Shown: piece after piece, positions 3,454 to 47,551 of the stretch | How the letters are laid out: each line of letters starts with the position of its first letter | Position numbering within the stretch: position 1 is the first letter of the stretch | Assembly (NCBI GenBank): GCA_035528415.1 | Contig: DATKYQ010000002.1 | Location: forward strand, 8,176-72,175 | Length of the DNA: 64,000 nucleotides | Source: Myxococcota bacterium | GTDB lineage: Bacteria; Myxococcota; B64-G9 | Direction: 5' to 3' | Notes under the pieces: generated by a model | Told to the model about the DNA's origin: nothing | What the model saw: the letters and a program-made list of their open reading frames with translations, nothing else | Database searches by the model: none | Made by a program: the position numbers and the translations under genes

Positions 3454-4947
3454 TCAAAACCTTCCCACCCAGACGATTCCCGCGCCCGTGGGGCCCACGC
3501 TCGGCAGCAGGCTCGACTCCGTGAAGATCTCCTTGGGCCTGTATGTCAAAGGCGCGATGATGGCCGTCAGCGCGGCGGCGCCGGCCAGGACGTAGCTGGT
3601 TATGGCCACACCCAGGCAGGCGTTGGCGTTTTGCTTGGCCGCATCCTTTCCCTTTTCCGTCACCGCTTTATTAAAATCCCGCATATAGCCTTCGTAGCCC
3701 AGGGTCGTACCCAGCCCTACTCCCAGCATGACACCGGCGGCGATTGTATAGGGCCACCAGGATCTGTACCAGGGACGCGGCGCGTAGTGAACCGGTAACT
3801 CGGGTAGCTGCTGTTCGGCAGGCTCCGGCCGGGCCGTCTCCTTCGGCAACGCGCGCGCCTCGATGGGCGGCTTGGCCTTGCCGGTCACTAAAAAGCCGGA
3901 CAAGTCGGCTGCGTAGCCGGCTACCTCTTCGGGCCCGGAACCCGCGTACTCCAGCCAGCCCTCGCGCAACTTGCGTCCCCGCTCTAGGTCTACCAGGGAG
4001 GCCGCCAGGTAGGCACGTCCCTTTTCGGTGCGGCGCCTGACCGCCACCAGGTAGCGCAGCCCCAGCCGTTCGCCCAGCCATGGCCACCACTGAGCAGGCA
4101 GCTTGTCGGCGCCGGCCGGCAGGCGCACGCACGGGTAGGCCAGGTCTAGCGCTATGGCGCCCTCGAAAGAAAGCTGAAAGCGAACGCGCACCGGCTGCTC
4201 GCCGACCTCTACCCAGCGCTGTGCGCCGCCCGTCTTCGGGTGCAACACCTGCAGGTGGTAGCGCCCCTGGGGATAGCTGCCGATGAAAGGCGTTTTGGCT
4301 ATCTGCTGGCCGTCGAGCAGGATCTCGGCCCCGGGCGGATCGCTTTCCACGGCTAACTGCCCCTGCGGCAGGCCGCCTAAGCGCTTTCTGGCCTTGTCCC
4401 AAAGCCGGATGGTTTTGGGCGAGTAATCTTGTCGGCTGAGTTCCATTTCCGGCCGCGTGCGTAGTACCACGGCGAAGCATTGCAGCGCCTGGTCTTCCTT
4501 CTTCAACCCGGCCAGGCTGATGCCTTGGAATATCTTGGTCTTGATCCACAGCCGCCAGCGCTCGGCGTCTACGGGCAGGCGGGCTATTCCTTCTTGAACA
4601 CGCTTCAAGGTAGAAAGCGCCTTGGCGTACTGAAAGCTGTACGACTGCAGGTATCCCTGCTGGAAGATGCCCTCCAGCCGCTCCAGGCCCTCCGCCGCCG
4701 GCCCGGCCTGCCCGCCGCCCGAGAGCAACACCGCGGTGCGCTCGGCCGAGAGCACCTCTATCTTTCCCCCGGCGGCAAGCTCGTGTTGCACGGCTCCTGC
4801 CAGGCGCGCAAGCAGACTGTCTTCATGGCCGTCGATCAACGCCACCACCGCAAGCGGACCCTTGACATCGCCAGCGGCGAACGCGCTGAAGGGCGAAAGC
4901 GCACAGGCGCAGAAGAAAAACAGCAGCGCGATCGAAAGTCTGGTCAT
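3454..4947 (-). CDS. PEGA-domain protein with signal peptide and C-terminal TM helix
   Basis: Signal peptide MTRLSIALLFFFCACALSPFSAFAAG. PEGA-like block ESDPPGAEILLDGQQIAKTPFIGSYPQGRYHLQV. Hydrophobic C-terminal helix; protein ends in F. Confidence 0.65.
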   Translation of the reverse strand: MTRLSIALLFFFCACALSPFSAFAAGDVKGPLAVVALIDGHEDSLLARLAGAVQHELAAGGKIEVLSAERTAVLLSGGGQAGPAAEGLERLEGIFQQGYLQSYSFQYAKALSTLKRVQEGIARLPVDAERWRLWIKTKIFQGISLAGLKKEDQALQCFAVVLRTRPEMELSRQDYSPKTIRLWDKARKRLGGLPQGQLAVESDPPGAEILLDGQQIAKTPFIGSYPQGRYHLQVLHPKTGGAQRWVEVGEQPVRVRFQLSFEGAIALDLAYPCVRLPAGADKLPAQWWPWLGERLGLRYLVAVRRRTEKGRAYLAASLVDLERGRKLREGWLEYAGSGPEEVAGYAADLSGFLVTGKAKPPIEARALPKETARPEPAEQQLPELPVHYAPRPWYRSWWPYTIAAGVMLGVGLGTTLGYEGYMRDFNKAVTEKGKDAAKQNANACLGVAITSYVLAGAAALTAIIAPLTYRPKEIFTESSLLPSVGPTGAGIVWVGRF

Positions 4948-6025: not shown

Positions 6026-6095
6026 GGGATTGTGACCCTCCCGCGGTCTATTTATCTCAAGGCCGTATAGCTGTCAACATTGTATCCTGGTGATC

Positions 6096-6869
6096 TCAGT
6101 AGAAGTTCTGCGTGTTCCAGCTGTCCTCATAACCGATTCCTATGCCAGTGAAACCGCAGCGCATGATGTTGCAGTGGTGCGATAGATCGGGGCAGGGCGG
6201 TTCGTTCGAGCCGTTCATGTACAAGTCTATTTCGCAGGGCGGATCGCAGCCGTAGGCGCAGTTTTGTCCCCAGGGGAAATCGGCGTGGAACAGCCCACCC
6301 TGGGCCTTCATCTGGATCGAGTGGTTGCGCCCGTGGGCCGACCACTCGAGGCTATAGGCCAGGGGCTTGTGGCACTCGGGCGCATCGCCGTCGTCTTGTG
6401 TGGCCCGGGTGAGATTGACCAGTTCATACTGCCAGCACTCCCACTCGTTGGGTTCGAACCACGAGTCGTTCTGTCCGTCGTTGTCGTAGTCGTAGTCGAT
6501 AGCGCCGCCTGTGCAAATCTGCCCGCTGGGCACGCAATCGAGCCCGTCGATCGTTGAAGGCGTGTATCCGGCTTCGCATGCACAGACCGGACCGTCGCTC
6601 CAGGTGATTGTGCTCCCGTGACCCGAGCAAGTCTGACCGTCGTCATGTCCCGCGTCCCACTCGTCGCTTCCGGGATCCGAGCCGGGGTCCGACCCGGGAT
6701 CGCCGGTCGGGTCCGTAACGTCGGCGCCCCCGTCAAGGGCATCGGCATCGATTCCATGGCCGGCATCCTGAGCGTCGGAGTCAAGTTGGATGATCCCCGT
6801 GCAGCCGCAAGCAAGGAGCGTAAGCAAGGCAAGGCAATAAAAATGCAACCAGCGCAAAAGAGCCTCCAA
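6096..6869 (-). CDS. Cysteine-rich secreted lipoprotein, hypothetical
   Basis: Lipobox LLACGC. Asp/Gly-rich linker (GDPGSDPGSDPGSD). 20 Cys in the C-terminal half. No recognisable catalytic motif. Confidence 0.55.
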   Translation of the reverse strand: MEALLRWLHFYCLALLTLLACGCTGIIQLDSDAQDAGHGIDADALDGGADVTDPTGDPGSDPGSDPGSDEWDAGHDDGQTCSGHGSTITWSDGPVCACEAGYTPSTIDGLDCVPSGQICTGGAIDYDYDNDGQNDSWFEPNEWECWQYELVNLTRATQDDGDAPECHKPLAYSLEWSAHGRNHSIQMKAQGGLFHADFPWGQNCAYGCDPPCEIDLYMNGSNEPPCPDLSHHCNIMRCGFTGIGIGYEDSWNTQNFY

Positions 6870-8851: not shown

Positions 8852-11209
8852 ATGAAAAAGTCAACAATTCTGACACTATTGGCAGTTATGGCCGTTGTAT
8901 TGGCGGCCCCTTCGGCCTCTGCCGTCGGCCTGCTGATTCCCACCGACCGTTCGCTGAGTCCGTTGGGCATCAAGTACCACCGGGCCGAAGTGAAAATAAA
9001 GGATCGCGTGGCGGTCACCCACGTCGATCAGGTGTTTTACAACAACACCGACCAGGTGCTCGAGGCCACTTATATCTTTCCGTTGCCCAAGGGGGCCACT
9101 GTCTCCGACTTCTACCTGTACATCAACGGCAAGCGCACCAAGGGCGAGATTCTCGAGAAGAACCAGGCGCGCAACATCTACGAGGGGATAGTCAGGCGCA
9201 TGCGCGACCCGGGGCTGCTCGAGTACCTGGGCCGCGATCTCTTCAAGTGCCGCGTCTACCCGGTGCCCCGCAGGGGCGAGCAGCGCATCGAGATCGAGTT
9301 CAGCCAGATCATGCCCTACGAGGGCGGCATCACAAAGTACTCCTACCCGATGCGCACCGATCGCACCTCGGCCCGGACGATGAAAGACTTCACCCTGTCG
9401 GTCAACATCCAGTCCAAGACCGCCATCAAGACCATCTACTCGCCGACCCACAAGATCTACAGCCGCAAGCGTGACGATCATAATGCCACGGCCGGTTTCG
9501 AAACCATGGCAGCCACCCTCGACCACGATTTCGAGATGTTTTACACGGTTTCCGACAAGGACGTCGGGCTGAACCTTTTGACCTACCGCGAGCCGGGCGA
9601 ACCCGGCTTCTTCATGCTGATGGCCTCGCCCAAGAGCGAGTTCCGCGAGCGCGAGATCATCGGCAAGCGTATCTCTTTCGTGATCGACACTTCGGGATCG
9701 ATGGCCGGGGCCAAGATGCGCCACGCCAAGAAGGCCATCAAGTACTGCCTGCAGAGACTGAACCCCGACGACCTGTTCAACGTGATCCGTTTTTCGACAG
9801 ACGTCGAGGCCTTCGTCAAGCAGCCGGTCTCGGCCGGTAAGGACAACGTCCAGCGGGCGCTCAACTTCGTCGGTCACATGGAGGCCGCCGGCGGCACGGC
9901 CATTGACGAGGCGCTGACGACCGCCCTGGCCGGGCACGTCAAGGCCTCAGAGCCCAATATGATGGTCTTCATGACCGACGGGCATCCGACCGTGGGCGAG
10001 ACCGACCCGGCCCGGATCATCAAGCATACCGCCGGTGCCAACAAGGTAGCGGCCAAGATCTTCGTCTTCGGGGTTGGCGACGAGATCAACACCAAGCTGC
10101 TCGACAAAGTCTCGGGCGGCAACCACGGCGATTCAACCTATGTCAAGCCCAACCAGGAGATCGAACACACCCTGGCCACTTTCTACGACAAGGTCAGCCA
10201 CCCGGTTATGTCCGATGTCACACTCGACTTCGGTTCGATCCACGAGTACGACGTGTTGCCCAAGCACATCCCCGACCTGTTCAAGGGCGGCCAGGTGATC
10301 ATGCTGGGGCGTTACCGCTCCAACGGCCACAGCGCCTTGACGCTGAGCGGAAAGATGGGCGAAGGCTCGAAGAAGTTCGTCTTCGAGGGCAAGTTCCCCA
10401 AGGTCGAACGCGACAACGACTTCATCCCGCGACTGTGGGCCACGCGCAAGATAGGCTTTCTGCTCGACAACATCCGCCTCGGCGGCGAGCGCCGCGAGCT
10501 GGTTGACGAAGTCATCCGTCTTTCGAAGCGTTACGGCATCGTCACTCCCTACACCTCGTACCTGGTGACCGAGGACAACCGCAACATGGTCGCCCGCGAG
10601 CAGCAGCGCCCGAGACCGCGGCCGATCATGAAGTCTCCCCCGCGGACCACTCGGCCGGGCTGGGGCATGGACAGGTCGGCACGCGGCGGATCGGCGAGTG
10701 GGCGGGCGAACATGCCCGCGGCTGCGCCCGAGGCCGAGTCCACCGGCAGCAAGGGAGTTTACGACTCGGTGGCTGCCAGCGCGCCGCGACGCAAGGCCAA
10801 GGCTCACATGCGCATCTTCGCCGAGAAGAAGGAAATGGCCATGCAGGCCGAGAGCGGCGAAGATGCCATCTCCATGGCCGGCGCCGTCAAGGACATGAAG
10901 AACGCCCGGGCACCGCGCGACGACGAGGACGAGGCCAGCGGCATCCGCTACGTCTCGGGACGGGCCTTCAGCTTCAAGGGCGGCGCCTGGACCGACTTGC
11001 GATACAAGAGCGGCATGCGGATGCTCAAGGTCAAGTACCTCTCGAGCGCCTACTTCCGGCTGATCGCCAAGTCGAGCTTCCTCAAGGAGGTCTTCACCCT
11101 GGGACAGCGCGTGATCGTCGTGGTCGGCACGAACAAGGCCATAGAGATCGGCACCTCGGGCAAGGAGACCATCAGCGACAGCGAGGCGCGCGAGTTCACA
11201 GCGCAATGA
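8852..11209 (+). CDS. VIT domain + von Willebrand factor A domain secreted protein
   Basis: Start chosen at the ATG preceded by an AGGAGG RBS (MKKSTILTLLAVMAVVLAAPSASA signal peptide). VIT-like N-terminus (KYHRAEVKIKDRVAVTHVDQVFYN). vWA MIDAS motif ISFVIDTSGSM...NVIRFSTD. C-terminal Arg/Ala-rich low-complexity tail. Confidence 0.8.
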   Translation: MKKSTILTLLAVMAVVLAAPSASAVGLLIPTDRSLSPLGIKYHRAEVKIKDRVAVTHVDQVFYNNTDQVLEATYIFPLPKGATVSDFYLYINGKRTKGEILEKNQARNIYEGIVRRMRDPGLLEYLGRDLFKCRVYPVPRRGEQRIEIEFSQIMPYEGGITKYSYPMRTDRTSARTMKDFTLSVNIQSKTAIKTIYSPTHKIYSRKRDDHNATAGFETMAATLDHDFEMFYTVSDKDVGLNLLTYREPGEPGFFMLMASPKSEFREREIIGKRISFVIDTSGSMAGAKMRHAKKAIKYCLQRLNPDDLFNVIRFSTDVEAFVKQPVSAGKDNVQRALNFVGHMEAAGGTAIDEALTTALAGHVKASEPNMMVFMTDGHPTVGETDPARIIKHTAGANKVAAKIFVFGVGDEINTKLLDKVSGGNHGDSTYVKPNQEIEHTLATFYDKVSHPVMSDVTLDFGSIHEYDVLPKHIPDLFKGGQVIMLGRYRSNGHSALTLSGKMGEGSKKFVFEGKFPKVERDNDFIPRLWATRKIGFLLDNIRLGGERRELVDEVIRLSKRYGIVTPYTSYLVTEDNRNMVAREQQRPRPRPIMKSPPRTTRPGWGMDRSARGGSASGRANMPAAAPEAESTGSKGVYDSVAASAPRRKAKAHMRIFAEKKEMAMQAESGEDAISMAGAVKDMKNARAPRDDEDEASGIRYVSGRAFSFKGGAWTDLRYKSGMRMLKVKYLSSAYFRLIAKSSFLKEVFTLGQRVIVVVGTNKAIEIGTSGKETISDSEAREFTAQ

Positions 11210-11245
11210 AGTGACGGCCGGATTCCCCTGCCCGGAATTTTTTAA

Positions 11246-12844
11246 TCAACCACAAAGACGATCAATGAGCGCGTCAGCGGCGCGGATGCCGTCGATGGCC
11301 GACGAGACTATTCCGCCGGCGTAGCCGGAGCCTTCGCCGGCCGGATACAGACCGGCGCAGCCGGGGCTTGCGCCGTCGGGGCCGCGCAAGATCCTGACCG
11401 GGCTCGAGGTGCGGGTCTCCAAGCCGATCACGGCGGCCCGGGGATGATCGAGCCCGCGCATCTTCTTGCAGAAGACCGCAAGTCCACCCCTGAGAGCATC
11501 AGAGAGCCAATCGGGCATCAAAGCTCCGACGTCGGCCGCTGTCACCGCGGGGCGGTAGTTGATCGCCGGCAGACGCGCGCTGCGCGCCCCGGGCGCGCAG
11601 CGCATGAAATCGACAAGTCGCTGGGCCGGGGCGCGAAAGCCTCCACCTCCGGCGGCGAAGGCGGCCCGTTCGAGTTGTTGTTGAAAGCGCACTCCCTCCA
11701 GCGGGAAGCCTTCGCCGCCGAAGTCATCTACGGAAACGGCGGCCACCACGCCGGCGTTGGCCTCACCCGAATCCCGGGCGCTCGTGCTCATGCCGTTGGT
11801 GGTAAGCCCGTCAGCCTCGGTCGGGGTGGGAATGACGGTTCCTCCCGGGCACATGCAAAAGGTGTAGACGCTGCGACCGGCGACTCTGGCGGTCAAGCGA
11901 TAGCTGGCCGGGCCAAGACCCGGGTGGTTGCCATACTGGATAGCGTCGATCAGCTCCTGCGGATGGGTCATGCGCAGGCCCACGGCGAAGGGTTTGGCCG
12001 CAATCGGCAGGCCAATCTCGTGCAAGCCTGCGAAAAGGTCACGCGCCGAGTTGCCGGGCGCCAGCACGGCGCCCTCGCAGGCCAGCCTGCCGTCTTCGAG
12101 CACCAGCGCGCGCAGCTTGCCGGCCTGAAGCGACAGGTTGACAACCTTCGTTTCGAAGACGAACCTGCAGCCGTCGTCTTCGAGCCGTCCGTGCAGGTTG
12201 GCCAACACCTGCGGCCAGCGGTCGCTGCCCACGTGTGGTTGGGCGTCTACCAGGATCTGATCTCTACTGCCAGCGCCGCTGGCCTGCAGCACTTCAAGCA
12301 CGTGGCGCACAGCCGGCTGATGCAGGCGGGTAAAGAGCTTGCCGTCCGAGTAGGCGCCCGCGCCGCCCAGGCCGAAATGGAAGTTGCTTTCGGCTTGGAA
12401 TTGTCCGCGCCCGACCAGAGCGGCGATGTCCCCGTGGCGCGCGGCCAACTGGCGTCCCCTCTCGACCAGCAGCGGGCGCAGGCCGGCCTGGCATAAGCGC
12501 ATGGCGGCGAACAGTCCGGCCGGCCCGGCGCCGACCACGGCGACATCCCTTTGGCCGGCAACAGTCCGTGCGGGCGCAAGCGGCGAGGGCGGGCCGACCA
12601 TATGGGTATGCAAAGGAAGATGTTCGGGTGGACGGGAGAGCCTGGCGCGGATGCCGAGCACGAAGCGCGGTCTGCCGTGTCGCGAGTCGATCGAACGGCG
12701 CACGACACTGGCGTCGATCACTCGCTCGAGCGGCACGCCCAGGCGAGCCGCGGCCAGACGGGAGGGATCTTCATCCCGAGCCTCGATCGCCAGCTCGACA
12801 CCGTCGAGTTGCAGTTCGCATTGCGCGTCGGATACCATCTCCAA
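11246..12844 (-). CDS. FAD-dependent dehydrogenase (COG2509-like, NAD(FAD)-utilising)
   Basis: Rossmann dinucleotide motif VAVVGAGPAGLFAAMRL. GG-motif HFGLGGAGAYSDGKL typical of the COG2509 family. Confidence 0.75.
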   Translation of the reverse strand: MEMVSDAQCELQLDGVELAIEARDEDPSRLAAARLGVPLERVIDASVVRRSIDSRHGRPRFVLGIRARLSRPPEHLPLHTHMVGPPSPLAPARTVAGQRDVAVVGAGPAGLFAAMRLCQAGLRPLLVERGRQLAARHGDIAALVGRGQFQAESNFHFGLGGAGAYSDGKLFTRLHQPAVRHVLEVLQASGAGSRDQILVDAQPHVGSDRWPQVLANLHGRLEDDGCRFVFETKVVNLSLQAGKLRALVLEDGRLACEGAVLAPGNSARDLFAGLHEIGLPIAAKPFAVGLRMTHPQELIDAIQYGNHPGLGPASYRLTARVAGRSVYTFCMCPGGTVIPTPTEADGLTTNGMSTSARDSGEANAGVVAAVSVDDFGGEGFPLEGVRFQQQLERAAFAAGGGGFRAPAQRLVDFMRCAPGARSARLPAINYRPAVTAADVGALMPDWLSDALRGGLAVFCKKMRGLDHPRAAVIGLETRTSSPVRILRGPDGASPGCAGLYPAGEGSGYAGGIVSSAIDGIRAADALIDRLCG

Positions 12845-22595: not shown

Positions 22596-23339
<744 letters not shown>

Positions 23340-23396
23340 GTTCGCACCTCGCTTCGAATGTTCGCCCGCAGGCGGCTCTGGTATGCAAGCTCCGCC

Positions 23397-24458
23397 TCAT
23401 TGGACGTTCGAAGCGGCCGGTTGGTTGCCGGCCGTAGAGGTTTCCTTCTTCTCGTCTTTTTTGCCCGCCTCGGCCTTTTTCTGGGCCTCGGCCTCCTTTT
23501 TGCGCTCGCCCAGGATCTTGCCTGCTTCTACCCGCAGGTCGTAGGCCAGCTGGCCGTCCCAGGTGCGCGCCACCTCCTCGGTTTCGTACAGCATGCGCTT
23601 GAGGTAAAGCAGGTTGGCGTAAACCATGGCCTCGGCATAGCTCTCTTTGAGACCAATGGCACGCCTGCATGCCTCGATGCCCTGGTCGGCAAGCTTTAAG
23701 CAAGCCACGGGCCCTTTGAGTTTTTCCGGCTGGTAGTGCAAAAGATTCCAGGCGTAGGTGCCCACCTCGTAGAACAGGACAGCTTTCTTCTTTTGATCTT
23801 CCACAGCCTCGGCCCGGCTCCAGTACCAGTCGACGGCGTCCTGCACCAGGTTACTCTTGTCAGCGATTATGGCCAGGATCTTCATGGTTTCTATGTCGTC
23901 GGGTTTCTTTTCGAGGTCGGGCTGGAAGAACTTCAGGGCGTCCTGGTAGCGCTTGCCGTCGATGAAAAGAGTGATCAGGTACTGGCGCGCCTCGTGGTCC
24001 GCGGGGTTCTTTTCGAGCATCTTCAAGAAAATCTGTTGGGCGCGATCGGCGAGTTTCTTATCATTGGGAGCGGCCGAGAGCAGGATCTTGATAAGGAACA
24101 CCCGCGCATTCTCGTCGTCGGGGTGTTTCTTGAGGTGTTTTTCGAAGGCCTCGGCGGCCAGGGCCGCGGCGTTCTTATCCTGCTCGGACTGCGAGGCAGG
24201 ATCGTAGATGCTGAAATAGGCGTAGCCCAGGTTGAGGTAGATGTTGGGTGTATCGGCATCGAGGACGACGGCCTGCCTGTACTTCTCGATGGCGCCGCGG
24301 TAGTCGGATGTCTTGTAAAGCGCGTTGCCATCGCGCGCTATCTTTCGGGCACTAATGGTGTCGAACACCCCGCAGGCACCCAGCTCGGCACTCAGGGCCG
24401 AAATGACGAGGATCATCAGGTAATGTCTTGGCGCCGGCATCGCGTTTTCCATATCCAT
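23397..24458 (-). CDS. Tetratricopeptide-repeat lipoprotein (Ton-operon associated)
   Basis: Start chosen at MDMENAM... (signal plus ELGAC lipobox). Multiple TPR repeats. Co-oriented with exbB-exbD-exbD-tonB. Confidence 0.65.
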   Translation of the reverse strand: MDMENAMPAPRHYLMILVISALSAELGACGVFDTISARKIARDGNALYKTSDYRGAIEKYRQAVVLDADTPNIYLNLGYAYFSIYDPASQSEQDKNAAALAAEAFEKHLKKHPDDENARVFLIKILLSAAPNDKKLADRAQQIFLKMLEKNPADHEARQYLITLFIDGKRYQDALKFFQPDLEKKPDDIETMKILAIIADKSNLVQDAVDWYWSRAEAVEDQKKKAVLFYEVGTYAWNLLHYQPEKLKGPVACLKLADQGIEACRRAIGLKESYAEAMVYANLLYLKRMLYETEEVARTWDGQLAYDLRVEAGKILGERKKEAEAQKKAEAGKKDEKKETSTAGNQPAASNVQ

Positions 24459-24684
24459 ATGCGATTTTTTCGTACCGAGGTAATAGCCATTTTCTAAGCA
24501 GCATGCAAGAAAAAATTTGCATTGCCCACTGAATGGCGATCGTGCCGGTATAAAATGGACGAATTTACTTGCATAGGGGTGTGGAGATATGGTACGCGCG
24601 CTGTTCATGGCATGATTATTGTTGAGTTGGTGCTTAGCTCATTGTTTTGTAAATGAATTGTTTTTTTCGAACCCAAACTCGGAG

Positions 24685-29346
<4,662 letters not shown>

Positions 29347-42609: not shown

Positions 42610-43512
42610 ATGACCGCTTGCATAAAAATATCGGATCTCCACAAGAAGTTCGGGGACACCACGGCCGTAGACGGAATTTCATTCGAGATCATTAGAGGGG
42701 AGAGCTTCGGGTTGCTGGGGCCCAACGGGGCGGGAAAGACCACCACCTTGAACATGCTGTCCGGACTGCTCGAACCGGACTCCGGTTCGGTGGAGATCGA
42801 AGGCCTTGCCGGCGCCGCTCCCGCGCGACTCAGGCGCGAGATCGGCGCCGCCCCGCAGTCGCTGTCCCTCTACGAAGAAATGACGGCCGAGGAGAATCTT
42901 TCTTTTTTTGGGCGCCTGTACGGGCTCTCCGGTAAGCGACTCAAGGAGCGCGTCGGCTGGGCGTTGGCATTCGCGCTGCTCGAAGATCGCAAGGCCGAGA
43001 GGGTCAAGGTCTTCTCGGGCGGCATGCAACGGCGGCTGAACATGGCTTGCGCCCTGGTTCACGATCCGCCGCTTTTACTATTGGATGAGCCTACGGTCGG
43101 CGTCGATCCACAATCGCGAAATCATATCTTCGAAAGCATCGAGGCGCTCAAAGGCGAAGGTCGCACAATAGTCTACACCACCCACTACATGGAAGAGGCC
43201 CAGCGCTTGTGTGATCGGGTGGCGATCATCGATCAGGGAAAGATCATGGCCCTGGATAAAGTCGACCGGCTGATTGCGAGCCATGGGGGCGCCTCGGTTG
43301 TCGAGGTGACACTGGCCGAGCCGCCCGCCGACCCCGCGGCCCTGCCGGGCAAGCTCACGGGCTCGCAGCTCAGGGTAGAGACCAGCGAGCCCCTGAAGGT
43401 CGTCGCCCGGATCGCCTCGAGCGGCGTCAAGATTCTCAAGCTGATGGTTGACCAGGCCGACCTGGAATCTGTGTTTCTCAACTTGACCGGCAGGAGGCTC
43501 AGAGACCAATGA
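42610..43512 (+). CDS. ABC transporter ATP-binding protein (ABC-2 type)
   Basis: Walker A GPNGAGKTT. ABC signature FSGGMQRRL. Walker B LLLLDEPTVGVD. Confidence 0.9.
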   Translation: MTACIKISDLHKKFGDTTAVDGISFEIIRGESFGLLGPNGAGKTTTLNMLSGLLEPDSGSVEIEGLAGAAPARLRREIGAAPQSLSLYEEMTAEENLSFFGRLYGLSGKRLKERVGWALAFALLEDRKAERVKVFSGGMQRRLNMACALVHDPPLLLLDEPTVGVDPQSRNHIFESIEALKGEGRTIVYTTHYMEEAQRLCDRVAIIDQGKIMALDKVDRLIASHGGASVVEVTLAEPPADPAALPGKLTGSQLRVETSEPLKVVARIASSGVKILKLMVDQADLESVFLNLTGRRLRDQ

Positions 43513-44768
43513 ACGGCATCTTGACCCTGGCGTTCAAAGATCTGCGTCTGCTGTGGCGCGATCGCTTCGGCATGTTCTGGGTGTTTGCCTTCCCGCTGAT
43601 CATGGCGCTGCTCTTCGGCTCGCTCTACTCGGGCGGCGGCGGCGCGCAGAACATCAAGATCGGCGTCATCGACCAGGATCAAACACCGCGCTCGGGCTCC
43701 TACGTCGAGAGACTGGAGAAAACGGATGCATTGAAGGTCGAGCGCCTGCCGCTCGACCAGGCGCGCCGGAAAGTGCGTCAAGGAGATCTCTCGGCTTACG
43801 TGCTTCTGGAGAAGGGCTTCGGCGAGCTGAGCTTCGGAGGCAGCCGGGGTCTGCCGCTGCAGATGGGGGTCGATCCGTCAAAGTCGTCGGCCCGGGCTTA
43901 CCTGCAGGGAATTCTGGTGCAGAAGTGGTTCGAGTCGCTGCAGGACGTGTTTGCCGAGCCCGAGAGCATGCGCAAACTCGTGCGCAAGGGATTGACAGAT
44001 GTCGACGAGTCGCCGGATGTCTCGGCTGAACAGCGGCTGGTGCTAAAGACGTTCATGGGCAGCGTGGACAAGTTTCTGGATCAGGTCGACTCCGACGTCT
44101 ATCGCTCGGGCGAACCCCTGGGAAACATGCAGATCAAGACCGTCTCGGTCATCAGCGACACAACCCGCCCGCGCAGCCCCTTCGATATCACCTTTCCCTC
44201 GGGCATCTTGTGGGGCCTGATTGGCTGCGCCACGGCCTTCGGCATCTCGATTGTCTCAGAGCGTAACTCGGGCACGCTCAAGCGCATCAGGCTCTCTCCG
44301 CTGGGCCGTCCGCAGATCATGGCCGGCAAGGGAGTGGCCTGCTTCATCGCCTGTCTGGCGACGGCCGCTGTGCTTTTGGTGATCGGGAAGATCTTCTTCA
44401 AGGTACAGGTCGACGATCCGTTCAAGGCGGCCATGGCGCTTGTAAGCGTCTCGTTGTGTTTCGTGGGCATCATGATGTTGATTTCCGTGCTTGGAAAAAC
44501 CGAACGGGCCGTCTCGGGCGCCGGCTGGGCCGTGTTGCTGGTGATGGCCATGTTCGGCGGCTGCATGATGCCGCTGGCTTTCATGCCGGGTTGGATGCAG
44601 GCCATCAGCAACCTGAGCCCGGTCAAGTGGGGTGTATTGGCCATCGAGGGGGCCGTCTGGCGCCAGTTCAGCTACACAGAGATGCTGCCCGCCTGCGGCG
44701 TCCTGGTCGGAGTCGGGGCGCTCTTTTTCGCAATCGGCGTCCGTCTATTCTCGCGCAACGAGGCATGA
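43509..44768 (+). CDS. ABC-2 family transporter permease
   Basis: Translationally coupled to the ATPase. N-terminal TM helix, large periplasmic loop, 5 C-terminal TM helices. Confidence 0.8.
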   Translation: MNGILTLAFKDLRLLWRDRFGMFWVFAFPLIMALLFGSLYSGGGGAQNIKIGVIDQDQTPRSGSYVERLEKTDALKVERLPLDQARRKVRQGDLSAYVLLEKGFGELSFGGSRGLPLQMGVDPSKSSARAYLQGILVQKWFESLQDVFAEPESMRKLVRKGLTDVDESPDVSAEQRLVLKTFMGSVDKFLDQVDSDVYRSGEPLGNMQIKTVSVISDTTRPRSPFDITFPSGILWGLIGCATAFGISIVSERNSGTLKRIRLSPLGRPQIMAGKGVACFIACLATAAVLLVIGKIFFKVQVDDPFKAAMALVSVSLCFVGIMMLISVLGKTERAVSGAGWAVLLVMAMFGGCMMPLAFMPGWMQAISNLSPVKWGVLAIEGAVWRQFSYTEMLPACGVLVGVGALFFAIGVRLFSRNEA

Positions 44769-44818
44769 TTTGGTCGCGTCACGGCTATGTTCTGAGGTAA
44801 AAAACAACTAGACAGAAA

Positions 44819-44836
44819 ATACACAATATTGTATAT
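44819..44836 (+). promoter_or_regulatory. Palindromic putative operator (ATACACAATATTGTATAT, core ACAATATTGT) in an AT-rich promoter 12 bp upstream of the abiEi-like gene
   Basis: Perfect 10-bp palindrome at 44823-44832 with imperfect extensions. AbiEi antitoxins are known autorepressors that bind inverted repeats. Confidence 0.4.
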
Positions 44837-44847
44837 TTACTGTCGAT

Positions 44848-45444
44848 ATGAAAAATGACTTTAATGACAGCCTGTTGGTGTCTGACTTTGATGAAACGCT
44901 GGGCGGCGTGTTTATCATTTCCGATTTGGCAAACATGTTCGCTGAAGTCCATCGAACTGCTCTGTACCGACGAATAGATCGCCTGGTGGAACTCGGAATT
45001 CTATCTCGATTCTCCCGTGGAATATACATATCCAAGAACTATCAACGCGAAATCTTGTGTCAGAAACTAGCCCCGGATTCATACATCAGCTTTGGTAATA
45101 TTCTTGCGGATGCGCTTGTCATTGGCAGCAGGCCGGACTACCGGGTGGATGCCGTGAAAATCGGCAAGACGCGGGTTTACACCGACGGGAGACTGAGTAT
45201 TCGCCAGTTCGGCTGCACAAAGCATGTCTTCTTCGGGTATTCGAGAATACAGGGGGTTCAAAAAGCAAGCCCGGAAAAGGCCTTCTTGGACACCCTCTAT
45301 TTTTACCAACATGGAGCGAGATTCCATTTTGACATATACTCGGATGTGAACATGGATCTGCTAGATGGGAAAAAGTTGGCAGACTACCTTACTCGTTATT
45401 CAAACCCAAAGTTCGTACGATTCGCCACGAGGTTTGTCGGATGA
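44848..45444 (+). CDS. abiEi: AbiEi-like antitoxin/transcriptional regulator (type IV TA / abortive infection), wHTH
   Basis: N-terminal wHTH with the characteristic ...RLVELGILSRFSRGIYI motif. ~47% GC versus ~65% flanks. Overlaps the downstream nucleotidyltransferase gene by 4 bp. Confidence 0.65.
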   Translation: MKNDFNDSLLVSDFDETLGGVFIISDLANMFAEVHRTALYRRIDRLVELGILSRFSRGIYISKNYQREILCQKLAPDSYISFGNILADALVIGSRPDYRVDAVKIGKTRVYTDGRLSIRQFGCTKHVFFGYSRIQGVQKASPEKAFLDTLYFYQHGARFHFDIYSDVNMDLLDGKKLADYLTRYSNPKFVRFATRFVG

Positions 45445-46181
45445 CTCCCAGCCGAACTACGAATATGAGCGTCCATGAATTCATGATCTGGGTGATGCAC
45501 CGTTTTTCCGAAGTCTTTCGCGAGCATGCCGTTCTCAAGGGTGGGATGCAACTGATGCTTTTGAGTAGCGAGCGAGCGACAAACGATCTGGATTATGTCT
45601 TCGTGCCTTTCACGTCCAAGAAAGACATCGCCGCGCGCATCGAAGAAGTACTCGTGCAATTACCCGATGCGAGGGTGCGGGCAAGCCTGCACTCCAGCAG
45701 TGGAAGATTTCTGGTTACCCTAGGCGAGACCAGCGTGCAAATCGAGTTCAATGTATCGACCGATGTACCCACTGAACCGCTGACCACGGAACTCTTGGCC
45801 CGCAAGGCCGGGGTCTTGCCACGGGTAATTCGCGTCATGAGCAAGGATGTCGCCATGGCGAACAAGCTGGCGGCATGGAATGAGCGCCGCCTTGCCCGTG
45901 ATCTCTATGATATCTACTACTGGTATGCCCATCTGGATGTGCTGCCCGACCAGGATGCGCTAAACAGCAGACTGGCGAAAATCTCCTCTCGTTTGCCCAA
46001 GTTCAAGAACCTCAAACACATGAGCCAGGCCGAATTCTGGAAGGTTTTTCAAAATGAAGTTCATAACCTGGATGAAAAGGATTTTCTCGTGCAACTGGGC
46101 CCCCTGCTCCCAGCCCATCGTCTGGAGGGACTGATGCCCGTACTCAAGGTCAAGCTTTCCGAGCTGGCATATCGATACTAA
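45441..46181 (+). CDS. abiEii: AbiEii/AbiGii-family nucleotidyltransferase toxin (DUF1814)
   Basis: NTase motif LKGGMQLMLLSSERATNDLDYVF (hhLKGG.AL.....R.S.DLD). Size (246 aa) and pairing with an upstream AbiEi-like gene match the family. Confidence 0.7.
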   Translation: MTPSRTTNMSVHEFMIWVMHRFSEVFREHAVLKGGMQLMLLSSERATNDLDYVFVPFTSKKDIAARIEEVLVQLPDARVRASLHSSSGRFLVTLGETSVQIEFNVSTDVPTEPLTTELLARKAGVLPRVIRVMSKDVAMANKLAAWNERRLARDLYDIYYWYAHLDVLPDQDALNSRLAKISSRLPKFKNLKHMSQAEFWKVFQNEVHNLDEKDFLVQLGPLLPAHRLEGLMPVLKVKLSELAYRY

Positions 46182-46272
46182 ACACCTGTATCGGCAAATA
46201 CGTTTTTTCTCGACTGGCGCGGCCGGAGATGTTAATTATCGCCATCCTGTCGATCGGGAAGCGGGAGGCATC

Positions 46273-47365
46273 ATGTTCAGAGAGATCGTAGAGCGCCTGA
46301 AAAGTCTCCAGGAGAGACTGGTTGCGCTCAGGGGGCCTCTTTGACGTCGCCGGCAAGCAGGCGCGCGTCGCGGTCATAGACAAGGAGATGGAGCAGGCTT
46401 CCTTCTGGGACAACCCCAAGCGGGCCGGGGAGATCCAGAAAGAGCGGGCGGATCTGCTTGATACCGTCGAGAAATTTCTGGGCGCCGAGAAGAAGGTAAC
46501 CGAGGGACTAGAGCTTTGCGAGCTGGCCGCGGCCGAGGAGGACGCCGAGATGGGCCGCGAGCTCGAGAGAGATCTTGCGACGATTGAGAAGAAAGTGCGT
46601 GCCATGGAGCTTGCCCGCATGCTCACGGGGCCCAACGACCAGCGTGACGCCTTCGTCAGCATCAACTCCGGCGCGGGAGGCACCGAGTCTTGCGATTGGG
46701 CCAACATGCTGTTGCGCATGTACCTGCGCTACAGCGAGTCACGCGGTTGGGAGACGTCCATTACCGAATACCTGGCCGGCGACGAGGCGGGGGTCAAGTC
46801 GGTCACCTTCTCGGTAGAAGGCAAGGCCGCCTTCGGCTACCTGCGGGCCGAGGTGGGCATCCACCGCCTGGTACGCATCTCACCCTTCGACGCCGGAAAG
46901 CGCAGACACACCTCGTTCGCCAGCGTCTTCGTCTATCCCCAGGTTGATGATGATATAGAGATCGAGATCCGCGACGAGGATCTCAGGGTGGACACCTACC
47001 GCGCCTCGGGCGCCGGCGGACAGCACGTCAACAAGACCGACTCGGCCGTGCGCTTGACGCACCTGCCGACCGGCGTAGTGGCGGCCTGCCAGAACGAGCG
47101 CAGCCAGCATCGCAACAAGGCCATGGCCATGAAGGTACTCAAAAGTCGGCTCTACGACTTGGAAATGGAAAAACGCCGCGAGATCGAGGACGCCTTGCAT
47201 GCCCAGCAGAAGGAGATAGCATGGGGCTCCCAGATTCGCTCCTACGTGCTGCAACCCTACCGCATGGTCAAGGATCACCGCACCAAGCACGAGACCGGAA
47301 ACGTCGACCGGGTGCTCGACGGTGATCTCGACGATTTCATCGAGACCTACTTGCTCCAGGAGTAA
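46273..47365 (+). CDS. prfB: Peptide chain release factor 2, requires programmed +1 ribosomal frameshift at 46339-46345
   Basis: Frame 0 is MFREIVERLKSLQERLVALRGPL-stop. After CTT TGA C the +1 frame continues DVAGKQARVAVIDKEM... with RF2 motifs (SPF, GGQHVNKTDSAVR). Confidence 0.9.
46330..46345 (+). promoter_or_regulatory. prfB: prfB +1 frameshift cassette: internal SD-like AGGGGG, then CCT CTT TGA C
   Basis: Matches the canonical RF2 autoregulatory frameshift site (SD, 3-nt spacer, CUU UGA C). Confidence 0.85.
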
Positions 47366-47446
47366 CTTCGATCCGTAAACGGAATCATTTGGCTCTCCCG
47401 GTTGTTGTGGACGGGTACACCGGCAGTTCGCAGACCGTTACAGGTG

Positions 47447-47465
47447 CCCGAGATAGCGGGTTTTT
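47447..47465 (+). terminator. Weak candidate terminator (CCCG-AGATAG-CGGG then TTTTT) 80 nt after prfB
   Basis: Only a 4-bp GC stem, so low confidence. Confidence 0.25.
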
Positions 47466-47467
47466 CC

Positions 47468-47496
47468 TTGACCGGCTGTCCGGGATGGGCTATCTT
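47468..47496 (+). promoter_or_regulatory. Candidate sigma70-type promoter for lysS (TTGACC - 17 bp - TATCTT)
   Basis: -35 element at 47468-47473, -10 element at 47491-47496, 56 nt upstream of the lysS ATG. Confidence 0.35.
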
Positions 47497-47551
47497 ACGG
47501 CGATTTTGTGCCTGTAAAAACGCTTGGGAATCAATAGGTTATCCGGGAGAA

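Follow-up and report, generated by a model that had tools for sequence, protein, structure and literature searches.

A probably acquired AbiE-family toxin–antitoxin cassette between an ABC-2 permease gene and prfB in an uncultured Myxococcales lineage

Toxin–antitoxin (TA) cassettes of the AbiE family pair a regulator gene with a nucleotidyltransferase (NTase) gene, in the bicistronic order known from Streptococcus agalactiae and Lactococcus lactis (COG5340 with DUF1814/COG2253). Here, we describe such a pair in a stretch of DNA from a Myxococcota bacterium (contig DATKYQ010000002.1, positions 8,176–72,175 of the forward strand; the whole 64,000-nt stretch is called the window, and its own numbering is used throughout). 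We consider it highly probable that the DNA in question is a self-contained, functional AbiE-family cassette that was laterally acquired by an uncultured Myxococcales lineage. We are as confident that the cassette runs promoter/operator, abiEi, abiEii, and that it landed after an ABC-2 permease stop codon and ahead of the T-run that precedes prfB. The locus adds an ordinary, if well-supported, case to a known type of system and leaves the current understanding of AbiE systems unchanged; its main value is for annotation, as a clean, well-bounded solitary AbiE module whose slot can be compared across an empty, a filled and a doubly filled allele. A compact operator around both promoter hexamers, an AbiEi subfamily outside the curated models and a three-state slot without a recombinase carry it slightly beyond routine.

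The interval 44769–46272 is exactly the gap between the permease stop codon and the prfB ATG, the place to which a sequence-only reading of the window had assigned the pair. The two open reading frames (ORFs) of that reading are present as claimed (44848..45444, 198 aa, and 45441..46181, 246 aa, on the same strand), as are the motifs it had quoted, GILSRFSRGIYI and LKGGMQLMLL...RATNDLD. The frames overlap by 4 bp (ATGA), the abiEii start codon sharing bases with the abiEi stop codon, which suggests that the two genes may be translationally coupled. The interval has a GC content of 0.500, compared with 0.612 for the whole window, and is the lowest in GC of all 1504-nt windows in the 64 kb, about 4 standard deviations under the mean (mean 0.612, standard deviation 0.027). 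The GC drop described from sequence is thus real, although the background from which it falls is about 61–62% and not about 65%. Third codon positions show the same break, with GC3 of 0.55 in abiEi and 0.64 in abiEii against 0.76–0.82 in the adjacent genes. Alignment to an empty site in a close relative (L004, described below) sets the extent of the insert at 44769–46202, with the left edge uncertain by about 20 nt. The features are as follows.

43509–44768, + strand: ABC-2 transporter permease gene, native left flank (PF12698, 126.7 bits; stop codon TGA at 44766–44768)
44769–46202, + strand: inserted DNA, 1434 nt (junction alignments, position of the T-run, GC 0.50 against 0.61)
44769–44808, + strand: left-junction non-coding segment, common to the relative L005 (40 of 43 positions identical)
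44809–44837, + strand: sigma-70-like promoter (TAGACA, 17-nt spacer, TATATT)
44811–44844, no strand: 34-bp palindrome, candidate AbiEi operator (15 of 17 arm pairs)
44848–45444, + strand: abiEi-like gene, 198 aa, antitoxin/autorepressor by family (PADLOC AbiEi, AlphaFold2 model, Foldseek)
45441–46181, + strand: abiEii gene, 246 aa, DUF1814 nucleotidyltransferase, toxin by family (PF08843, fold matches)
46182–46202, + strand: right-junction segment, found in this genome alone (junction alignment; weak, non-significant hairpin)
46203–46272, + strand: native T-run (46203–46208) and prfB leader (alignment to the empty site)
46273–47365, + strand: prfB, native right flank (ATG at 46273; PCRF and RF-1 domains)

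The downstream protein is a recognizable AbiEii. It scores 63.4 bits on PF08843 (gathering cutoff 22.5), covering positions 10–223 of the 238 in the profile, and matches 18 PADLOC AbiEii models, so that the family predicted from sequence holds in both collections. A single-sequence search of the Protein Data Bank (PDB) gave no significant match, and a profile search reached 9hlo_B, the toxin chain of S. agalactiae (E = 2.2e-5), together with JHP933 and MenT4. The AlphaFold2 model (predicted local distance difference test (pLDDT) 92.5, predicted TM-score (pTM) 0.88) has its best PDB fold matches in MenT3/TglT, JHP933 and MenT1, with E values from 2e-8 to 3e-4. The best of these, at about 2e-8, is MenT3/TglT, the toxin of Mycobacterium tuberculosis MenA3–MenT3 (Rv1044–Rv1045, TglT/TakA). 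Residues G34, G35, R45, T47, D49, D51, E102, K142, R149, R150, R153, D154, Y156 and D157 are invariant or nearly invariant in an alignment of 50 homologues (A3), and NTase motifs I/II (hGG...R.T.DhD), III (K...R) and IV (D) are all present, as in S. agalactiae AbiEii. In the latter, Dy et al. found G49/50, R63, D67, D69, K173, R180 and D192 to be essential for toxicity; profile alignment to 9hlo_B gives G34, G35, R45, D49, D51, K142, R149 and D157 as their identical counterparts. The toxin here is the shorter of the two (246 compared with 287 aa), and the spacing from the glycines to the DxD is 13 residues rather than 15. T47, in RATNDLD, aligns to the phospho-acceptor T65, in RSTVDID, of 9hlo_B; it precedes the first catalytic Asp of motif II by two residues, is invariant in the 50 homologues and occupies the same position as the phospho-acceptor Ser/Thr of MenT.

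The upstream protein is less easily placed. Its AlphaFold2 model, built on 50 homologues (pLDDT 95.1, pTM 0.87), consists of a winged helix-turn-helix (wHTH) domain at the N-terminal end (residues 20–62 or thereabouts) followed by a C-terminal alpha/beta domain, the same two-domain fold as that of the S. agalactiae antitoxin. A Foldseek search of the PDB with this model returned four matches at E<=1e-3, all of them chains of 6y8q or 1zel. The top match is 6y8q (S. agalactiae AbiEi, 1.1e-7), with a sequence identity of only 17% in the structural alignment, and the second is 1zel (Rv2827c of the M. tuberculosis pair Rv2827c–Rv2826c, 1.6e-4, TMq 0.63), a larger protein of 293 aa; identities of the proteins here to MenT3 and Rv2827c are 13–17%. 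The PADLOC AbiEi model PDLC02241 matches the protein over its full length (residues 13–194, 3.6e-27). Sequence comparison with the PDB, in contrast, gave no significant match for the single sequence and marginal matches only for the profile (E about 0.1). Nearly all AbiEi relatives listed from a set of 5.8 billion proteins carry no Pfam annotation. A profile search of 1.84 billion representatives gave 98 clusters (at 50% identity) at E<=1e-30 and 956 at E<=1e-10, and among ten more distant relatives linked by the profile, one passes PF13338 (P0316, 27 bits) and three score 20.7–22.1 bits. Because PADLOC and the fold matches agree, in spite of scores below cutoff in Pfam and NCBIfam (given below) and of relatives without Pfam records, we assign the 198-aa protein to the AbiEi family, as a member of a subfamily that the curated sequence models appear to overlook. 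The AbiEi label of the sequence-only reading is therefore upheld by PADLOC and by fold, and not by PF13338; PADLOC, which it had named as a check, recognizes both proteins. The subfamily is recognizable by fold, by PADLOC and by its compact 34-bp operator, and exposes a gap in the curated models.

Eight further loci of this subfamily were compared (L005, L015, L017, L020, L021, L023, L024 and L026; partners 50–95% identical where measured). When these loci are examined from the partner side, all eight have a partner of about 200 aa just upstream of an AbiEii gene or of a cut ORF in its place; in three of the eight, the downstream ORF is cut at the contig end and has no Pfam record. A more distant Myxococcales metagenome-assembled genome (MAG) carries a 66%-identical cassette at another locus (L015, JALVPF010000104, the same MAG as L009), with nifU on one side and an HNH/ScoMcrA-like nuclease gene on the other, so the subfamily circulates at varied sites in Myxococcales. 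A functional tie of the cassette to prfB/lysS is rejected, each of L015, L017, L020, L021, L023, L024 and L026 standing in an unrelated context. Two relatives show other arrangements. In L018 (3549–6759), a subfamily AbiEii (P0011, 54–56% identical) has no AbiEi gene directly upstream; its neighbours are AAA_14/DUF4143 genes and a separate AbiEi_4/AbiEii pair that Pfam recognizes, a grouping that resembles a small defence/TA cluster. In L020 (1246–4044), the AbiEi homologue is listed at 215 aa, apparently from a wrongly called start, its extra 14 codons being the operator and promoter (ATG TTGACAGTTATTGCACAATATTGTAT...); the AbiEii partner there is truncated to 179 aa, with a hipBA-like pair (HTH_3 plus HipA) immediately downstream on the other strand.

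The region upstream of abiEi combines promoter and predicted operator. The promoter, TAGACA-17 nt-TATATT, matches the consensus at 10 of 12 positions and keeps its register in 9 subfamily loci. Because the −10 hexamer ends 10 nt before the ATG and no Shine-Dalgarno sequence is present, the abiE mRNA is likely to be leaderless or nearly so, unlike those of S. agalactiae and L. lactis AbiE. A palindrome with arms GACAGAAAATACACAAT and ATTGTATATTTACTGTC covers five of the six −35 bases and the entire −10 hexamer, and ends 3 nt before the abiEi ATG (44811–44844). It pairs at 15 of 17 arm positions, a value reached by none of 20000 shuffles of the intergenic region. When the subfamily loci are aligned at the start codon, the best palindrome centre falls in the same register in 8 of 9, and the consensus, computed without the near-duplicate L005, is T.GACAG..A.TACACA....TGTATA.Tat.TGTc..TATG. 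The core of the L017 palindrome has changed symmetrically, from AAT/ATT to ACA/TGT across the centre, with the dyad kept, as would be expected of a site bound by two protein copies. Autorepression through promoter inverted repeats has been published for other AbiEi proteins, and the 34-bp palindrome is likely to be the AbiEi operator. A promoter inverted repeat is common to this cassette and S. agalactiae AbiE, but the site here is one contiguous palindrome (2×17 bp) around the −35 and −10 hexamers, whereas that of S. agalactiae consists of two 23-bp repeats with 3 bp between them; Rv2827c binds four repeats with negative cooperativity. L021 contains, at about 3915–3945, a second palindrome that resembles the operator core (TACACACAATAGTGTAC), about 45 nt upstream of the main operator, so some subfamily members may carry two operator sites, as in Rv2827c.

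Comparison with relatives reveals empty and filled alleles of the slot. A permease scan of GTDB species genomes yielded two informative Myxococcales MAGs, L004 and L005. The closest relative, L004 (flank genes 90–94% identical in amino acids, permease 92%; synonymous divergence (dS) 0.18–0.30), has no cassette: its permease TGA is followed by AGCGTGC (7 nt) and then by TTTTTTCTCGACTGGCG..., the prfB leader. The permease stop codon of L004 lies inside a hairpin (CACGC...GCGTG) that directly abuts CTTTTTT (9244–9273), and hairpin and T-run together look like a terminator of the ABC operon. The more distant L005 (flanks 79–90% identical, permease 88%; dS 0.53–0.83) has the cassette at this position too, joined at the same left junction, and about 690 nt extra, with a HicA/HicB-like pair, between abiEii and the same T-run. 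The slot thus occurs empty (L004), with AbiE (window) and with AbiE plus the HicA/HicB-like pair (L005).

The cassettes of the window and L005 are far more alike than their surroundings. AbiEi and AbiEii are 95% and 93% identical in amino acids (dS 0.17 and 0.25), and dN/dS values of 0.13 (abiEi) and 0.14 (abiEii) indicate that both genes are under purifying selection. The pooled proportion of synonymous differences (pS) is 0.184 in the cassette (95% confidence interval 0.138–0.229) and 0.441 in the flanks (0.415–0.467), the latter pooled over six genes. None of 5000 contiguous flank blocks of cassette size is as low as the cassette, the block minimum being 0.376. Non-coding DNA behaves likewise, with 40 of 43 and 38 of 42 positions identical inside the insert (90–93%) compared with 51 of 71 (72%) in the prfB leader, and the tract of high identity is limited to the cassette. 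With GC of 0.47 and 0.53, the cassette has a foreign composition in both the window and L005. Because cassette pS (0.184) is so far below flank pS (0.441), the cassette is probably younger than the split of its two carrier host lineages. Lateral acquisition is supported because the L004 site is empty and looks undisturbed, the GC is foreign and the cassette postdates, on this estimate, the host split. The sequence-only reading had proposed horizontal acquisition and a comparison of orthologous intervals as the way to examine it; that comparison and the deviant GC agree with its proposal. Presence of the pair at native GC across the whole lineage would have spoken for vertical descent; the pair is found at the L005 locus, but with foreign GC and low pS, and it is absent from the nearer L004.

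Other sampling adds little to these alleles. The exact cassette occurs on metagenome contigs in this same context only, for example, on a 188-kb ENA contig. A metagenome scan for further alleles of the slot found only L012, which comes from another metagenome and is a duplicate of L005 (99.985% nucleotide identity), a short fragment (L013, 65%) and a distant homologue (L014, 33%). Three permease orthologues (L006, L007 and L009; 63–65%) have no prfB after the permease in the available DNA, of which only that of L007 extends far downstream, and therefore give no outgroup for the slot.

Two characterized homologues, S. agalactiae AbiE and M. tuberculosis MenAT, suggest a mechanism. AbiEii would be a Mg2+-dependent, polymerase-beta-type NTase that, when free, adds nucleotides to tRNA 3′ ends, blocks translation and arrests growth; tRNA modification has been shown for MenT and is here carried over by analogy. 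The wHTH domain of AbiEi would repress the operon by binding the 34-bp palindrome, in which both promoter hexamers lie, and its C-terminal domain would neutralize AbiEii, most likely by inducing auto-phosphorylation of Thr47. Loss of the cassette or shut-off of host expression (for example, by phage infection) would then free active toxin, with addiction and/or abortive infection as the outcome; a role in phage defence would follow from family membership. The pair had been labelled type IV from sequence. Its place in the AbiE family holds, but a 2026 preprint moves S. agalactiae AbiE itself from type IV to type VII, with antitoxin-induced auto-phosphorylation of the toxin, and this prototype is now reported to form a toxin–antitoxin complex, whereas type IV implies no interaction. 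T47 provides the Ser/Thr phospho-acceptor before the motif II Asp that characterizes type VII, and with this residue conserved the subfamily offers a further test case for the auto-phosphorylation model of AbiE/MenT control.

Several points weigh against reading the insert as a functional AbiE cassette acquired from elsewhere. Toxicity, neutralization and defence are argued here from homology and not from experiment, and S. agalactiae AbiE, placed in E. coli, gave no protection against 32 coliphages. The 198-aa protein scores 15 bits on PF13338 (AbiEi_4; cutoff 25), with the wHTH alone covered, and 31 bits on NCBIfam TAA_AbiEi NF047376 (cutoff 150). The antitoxin loop D85-E86-I87 of S. agalactiae, which putatively contacts the toxin, is not conserved and reads G-S-R here, in an alignment that is itself weak (E about 0.1). 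As to the arrival of the cassette, neither an integrase nor a transposase is encoded within ±10 kb, so the insertion is left unexplained by a mobility gene; no tRNA lies nearer than 32201; no flanking direct repeats or target duplication occur at the insert, which agrees with what had been noticed from sequence; and tblastn with AbiEii matched none of 72,556 plasmids and none of 50,697 phage records. The comparison, moreover, contains three host lineages only, which do not fix the direction and number of transfers. The locus bears the general marks of acquired DNA, deviant composition and an empty site in a close relative, and lacks those of a classical genomic island, an integrase or transposase, a tRNA/att site and direct repeats.

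The suggestion that the cassette is a purely selfish addiction module, or the remnant of a lost mobile element, with no part in phage defence and kept by the cost of its loss, comes close to an even chance without reaching it. The gene neighbourhood shows the cassette alone, outside any defence island, and in L005 it is stacked with a HicA/HicB-like TA pair and not with defence genes. A study of Photorhabdus (Mol Biol Evol 2026, PMC13617665) found chromosomal TA systems in small spots, repeatedly acquired at the same place and often with no mobility gene left; they were mostly addictive and rarely beside defence systems, with frequent loss by deletion and common erosion of the toxin. The slot described here resembles those spots, being a small variable place among core genes that holds 0, 1 or 2 TA systems, is reused and has no mobility gene, although the Photorhabdus systems are of type II and often come with Tn3 or insertion sequence traces, none of which was found here. 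The failure of S. agalactiae AbiE to protect E. coli points the same way. On the other hand, the AbiE of L. lactis does give abortive infection, and T7 plaques less well in the presence of related DUF1814 systems; the purifying selection on both genes fits either role, and addiction and defence are not mutually exclusive.

How the filled allele arrived can also be read in another way, namely as allelic replacement: a related Myxococcales donor would have supplied it by homologous recombination in the conserved flanks, with no insertion of the cassette itself into this site. The identical left junction in two lineages, the window–L005 identity of 0.94–0.96 in 44500–44700 and the lack of a recombinase would suit such an exchange. 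Its edges do not: the last 69 nt of the permease gene differ from L005 at about 11 positions immediately beside the 93%-identical junction; on the right side the two lineages have different junctions, the window with 21 nt of its own and L005 with about 690 nt that include the HicA/HicB-like pair; and the prfB leader is only 72% identical. No extended recombination tract is clear in the flanks from the window–L005 identity, and we regard this route as unlikely but not negligible.

Insertion, which we prefer, has difficulties of its own. The shared left junction and the differing right junctions do not fit any single simple model, and a site-specific insertion lacks a known enzyme. The left-junction segment (44769..44808) was not found upstream of the more distant cassette relatives compared. 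An inverted repeat (I9; 44836–44850 and 46168–46182) considered as the cassette ends is not conserved in L005 and is probably due to chance; integration associated with a tRNA or non-coding RNA is rejected, there being no nearby tRNA and no Rfam match in 43500–47500. That the slot between the terminator-like hairpin of the ABC operon and the T-run is a repeatedly used, recombinase-free landing pad, into exactly which the AbiE cassette would have moved as a discrete unit between diverged Myxococcales lineages, seems to us improbable; if true, some mechanism not yet described would have to target the slot in trans, for example, by recognizing the terminator hairpin.

Equally improbable, in our estimation, is vertical descent, in which the ancestor shared by the window, L004 and L005 lineages already had the cassette and L004 later lost it by deletion, with no recent transfer. 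The slot and left junction are indeed the same in the window and L005, and TA deletion is frequent in chromosomes (PMC13617665). However, pS within this one genome pair is 0.18 in the cassette and 0.44 in the flanks, with no flank block as low; the terminator-like hairpin of L004 abuts the T-run, so a deletion would need to have restored it exactly; and the GC3 gap of 0.15–0.25 has not been ameliorated. A decaying, non-functional remnant, for which one might cite the common toxin erosion of chromosomal TA systems (PMC13617665) and the truncated 179-aa AbiEii of L020, is very improbable given two full-length ORFs, catalytic residues that are all intact, dN/dS of 0.13–0.14 and a conserved promoter and operator.

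The insert may also affect transcription of its neighbours. Because it separates the position of the hairpin from the T-run at 46203–46208, transcripts of the ABC operon may run on into abiE, and those of abiE into prfB. An intrinsic terminator after abiEii was considered and rejected, the hairpin before the T-run being weak and not significant (−6.7 kcal/mol, z = −0.76).

The L005 allele contains further elements. Its second TA pair, between abiEii and the prfB T-run (11104–11501; 9104–9498 in L012), consists of a 62-aa HicA toxin (PF07927, 41.8 bits, cutoff 27) preceded by a 70-aa HicB/UPF0150-like ORF that stays under the cutoff, at 15 bits. Between abiEii and the HicB-like ORF, on the minus strand (10800–10955), lies a 51-aa ORF with a hydrophobic core (MKSLEDIMLTIVVITLLVAALVVGW...) and no Pfam match, which may encode a small membrane peptide or be open by chance alone. 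L005 also has two copies, 88% identical, of a repeated element of about 165–180 nt (9289–9467 and 6031–6210), with (C)TAG on either side of each. One was inserted immediately upstream of the abiE −35 hexamer and the other lies between lnt and the next gene; the element, small and apparently like a miniature inverted-repeat transposable element, is absent from the window and L004.

Elsewhere in the window, the only other compositional outlier is 23200–24800 (GC about 0.55), rejected as an island: it corresponds to an ordinary TPR-repeat protein gene on the minus strand (23397–24608). On the right flank of the cassette, prfB has a classical programmed +1 frameshift, with the slippery CTT TGA C at 46339–46345 and an SD-like (Shine-Dalgarno-like) AGGGGG 3 nt upstream of it; frame 0 encodes MFREIVERLKSLQERLVALRGPL and then TGA, and the main frame picks up at 46343.

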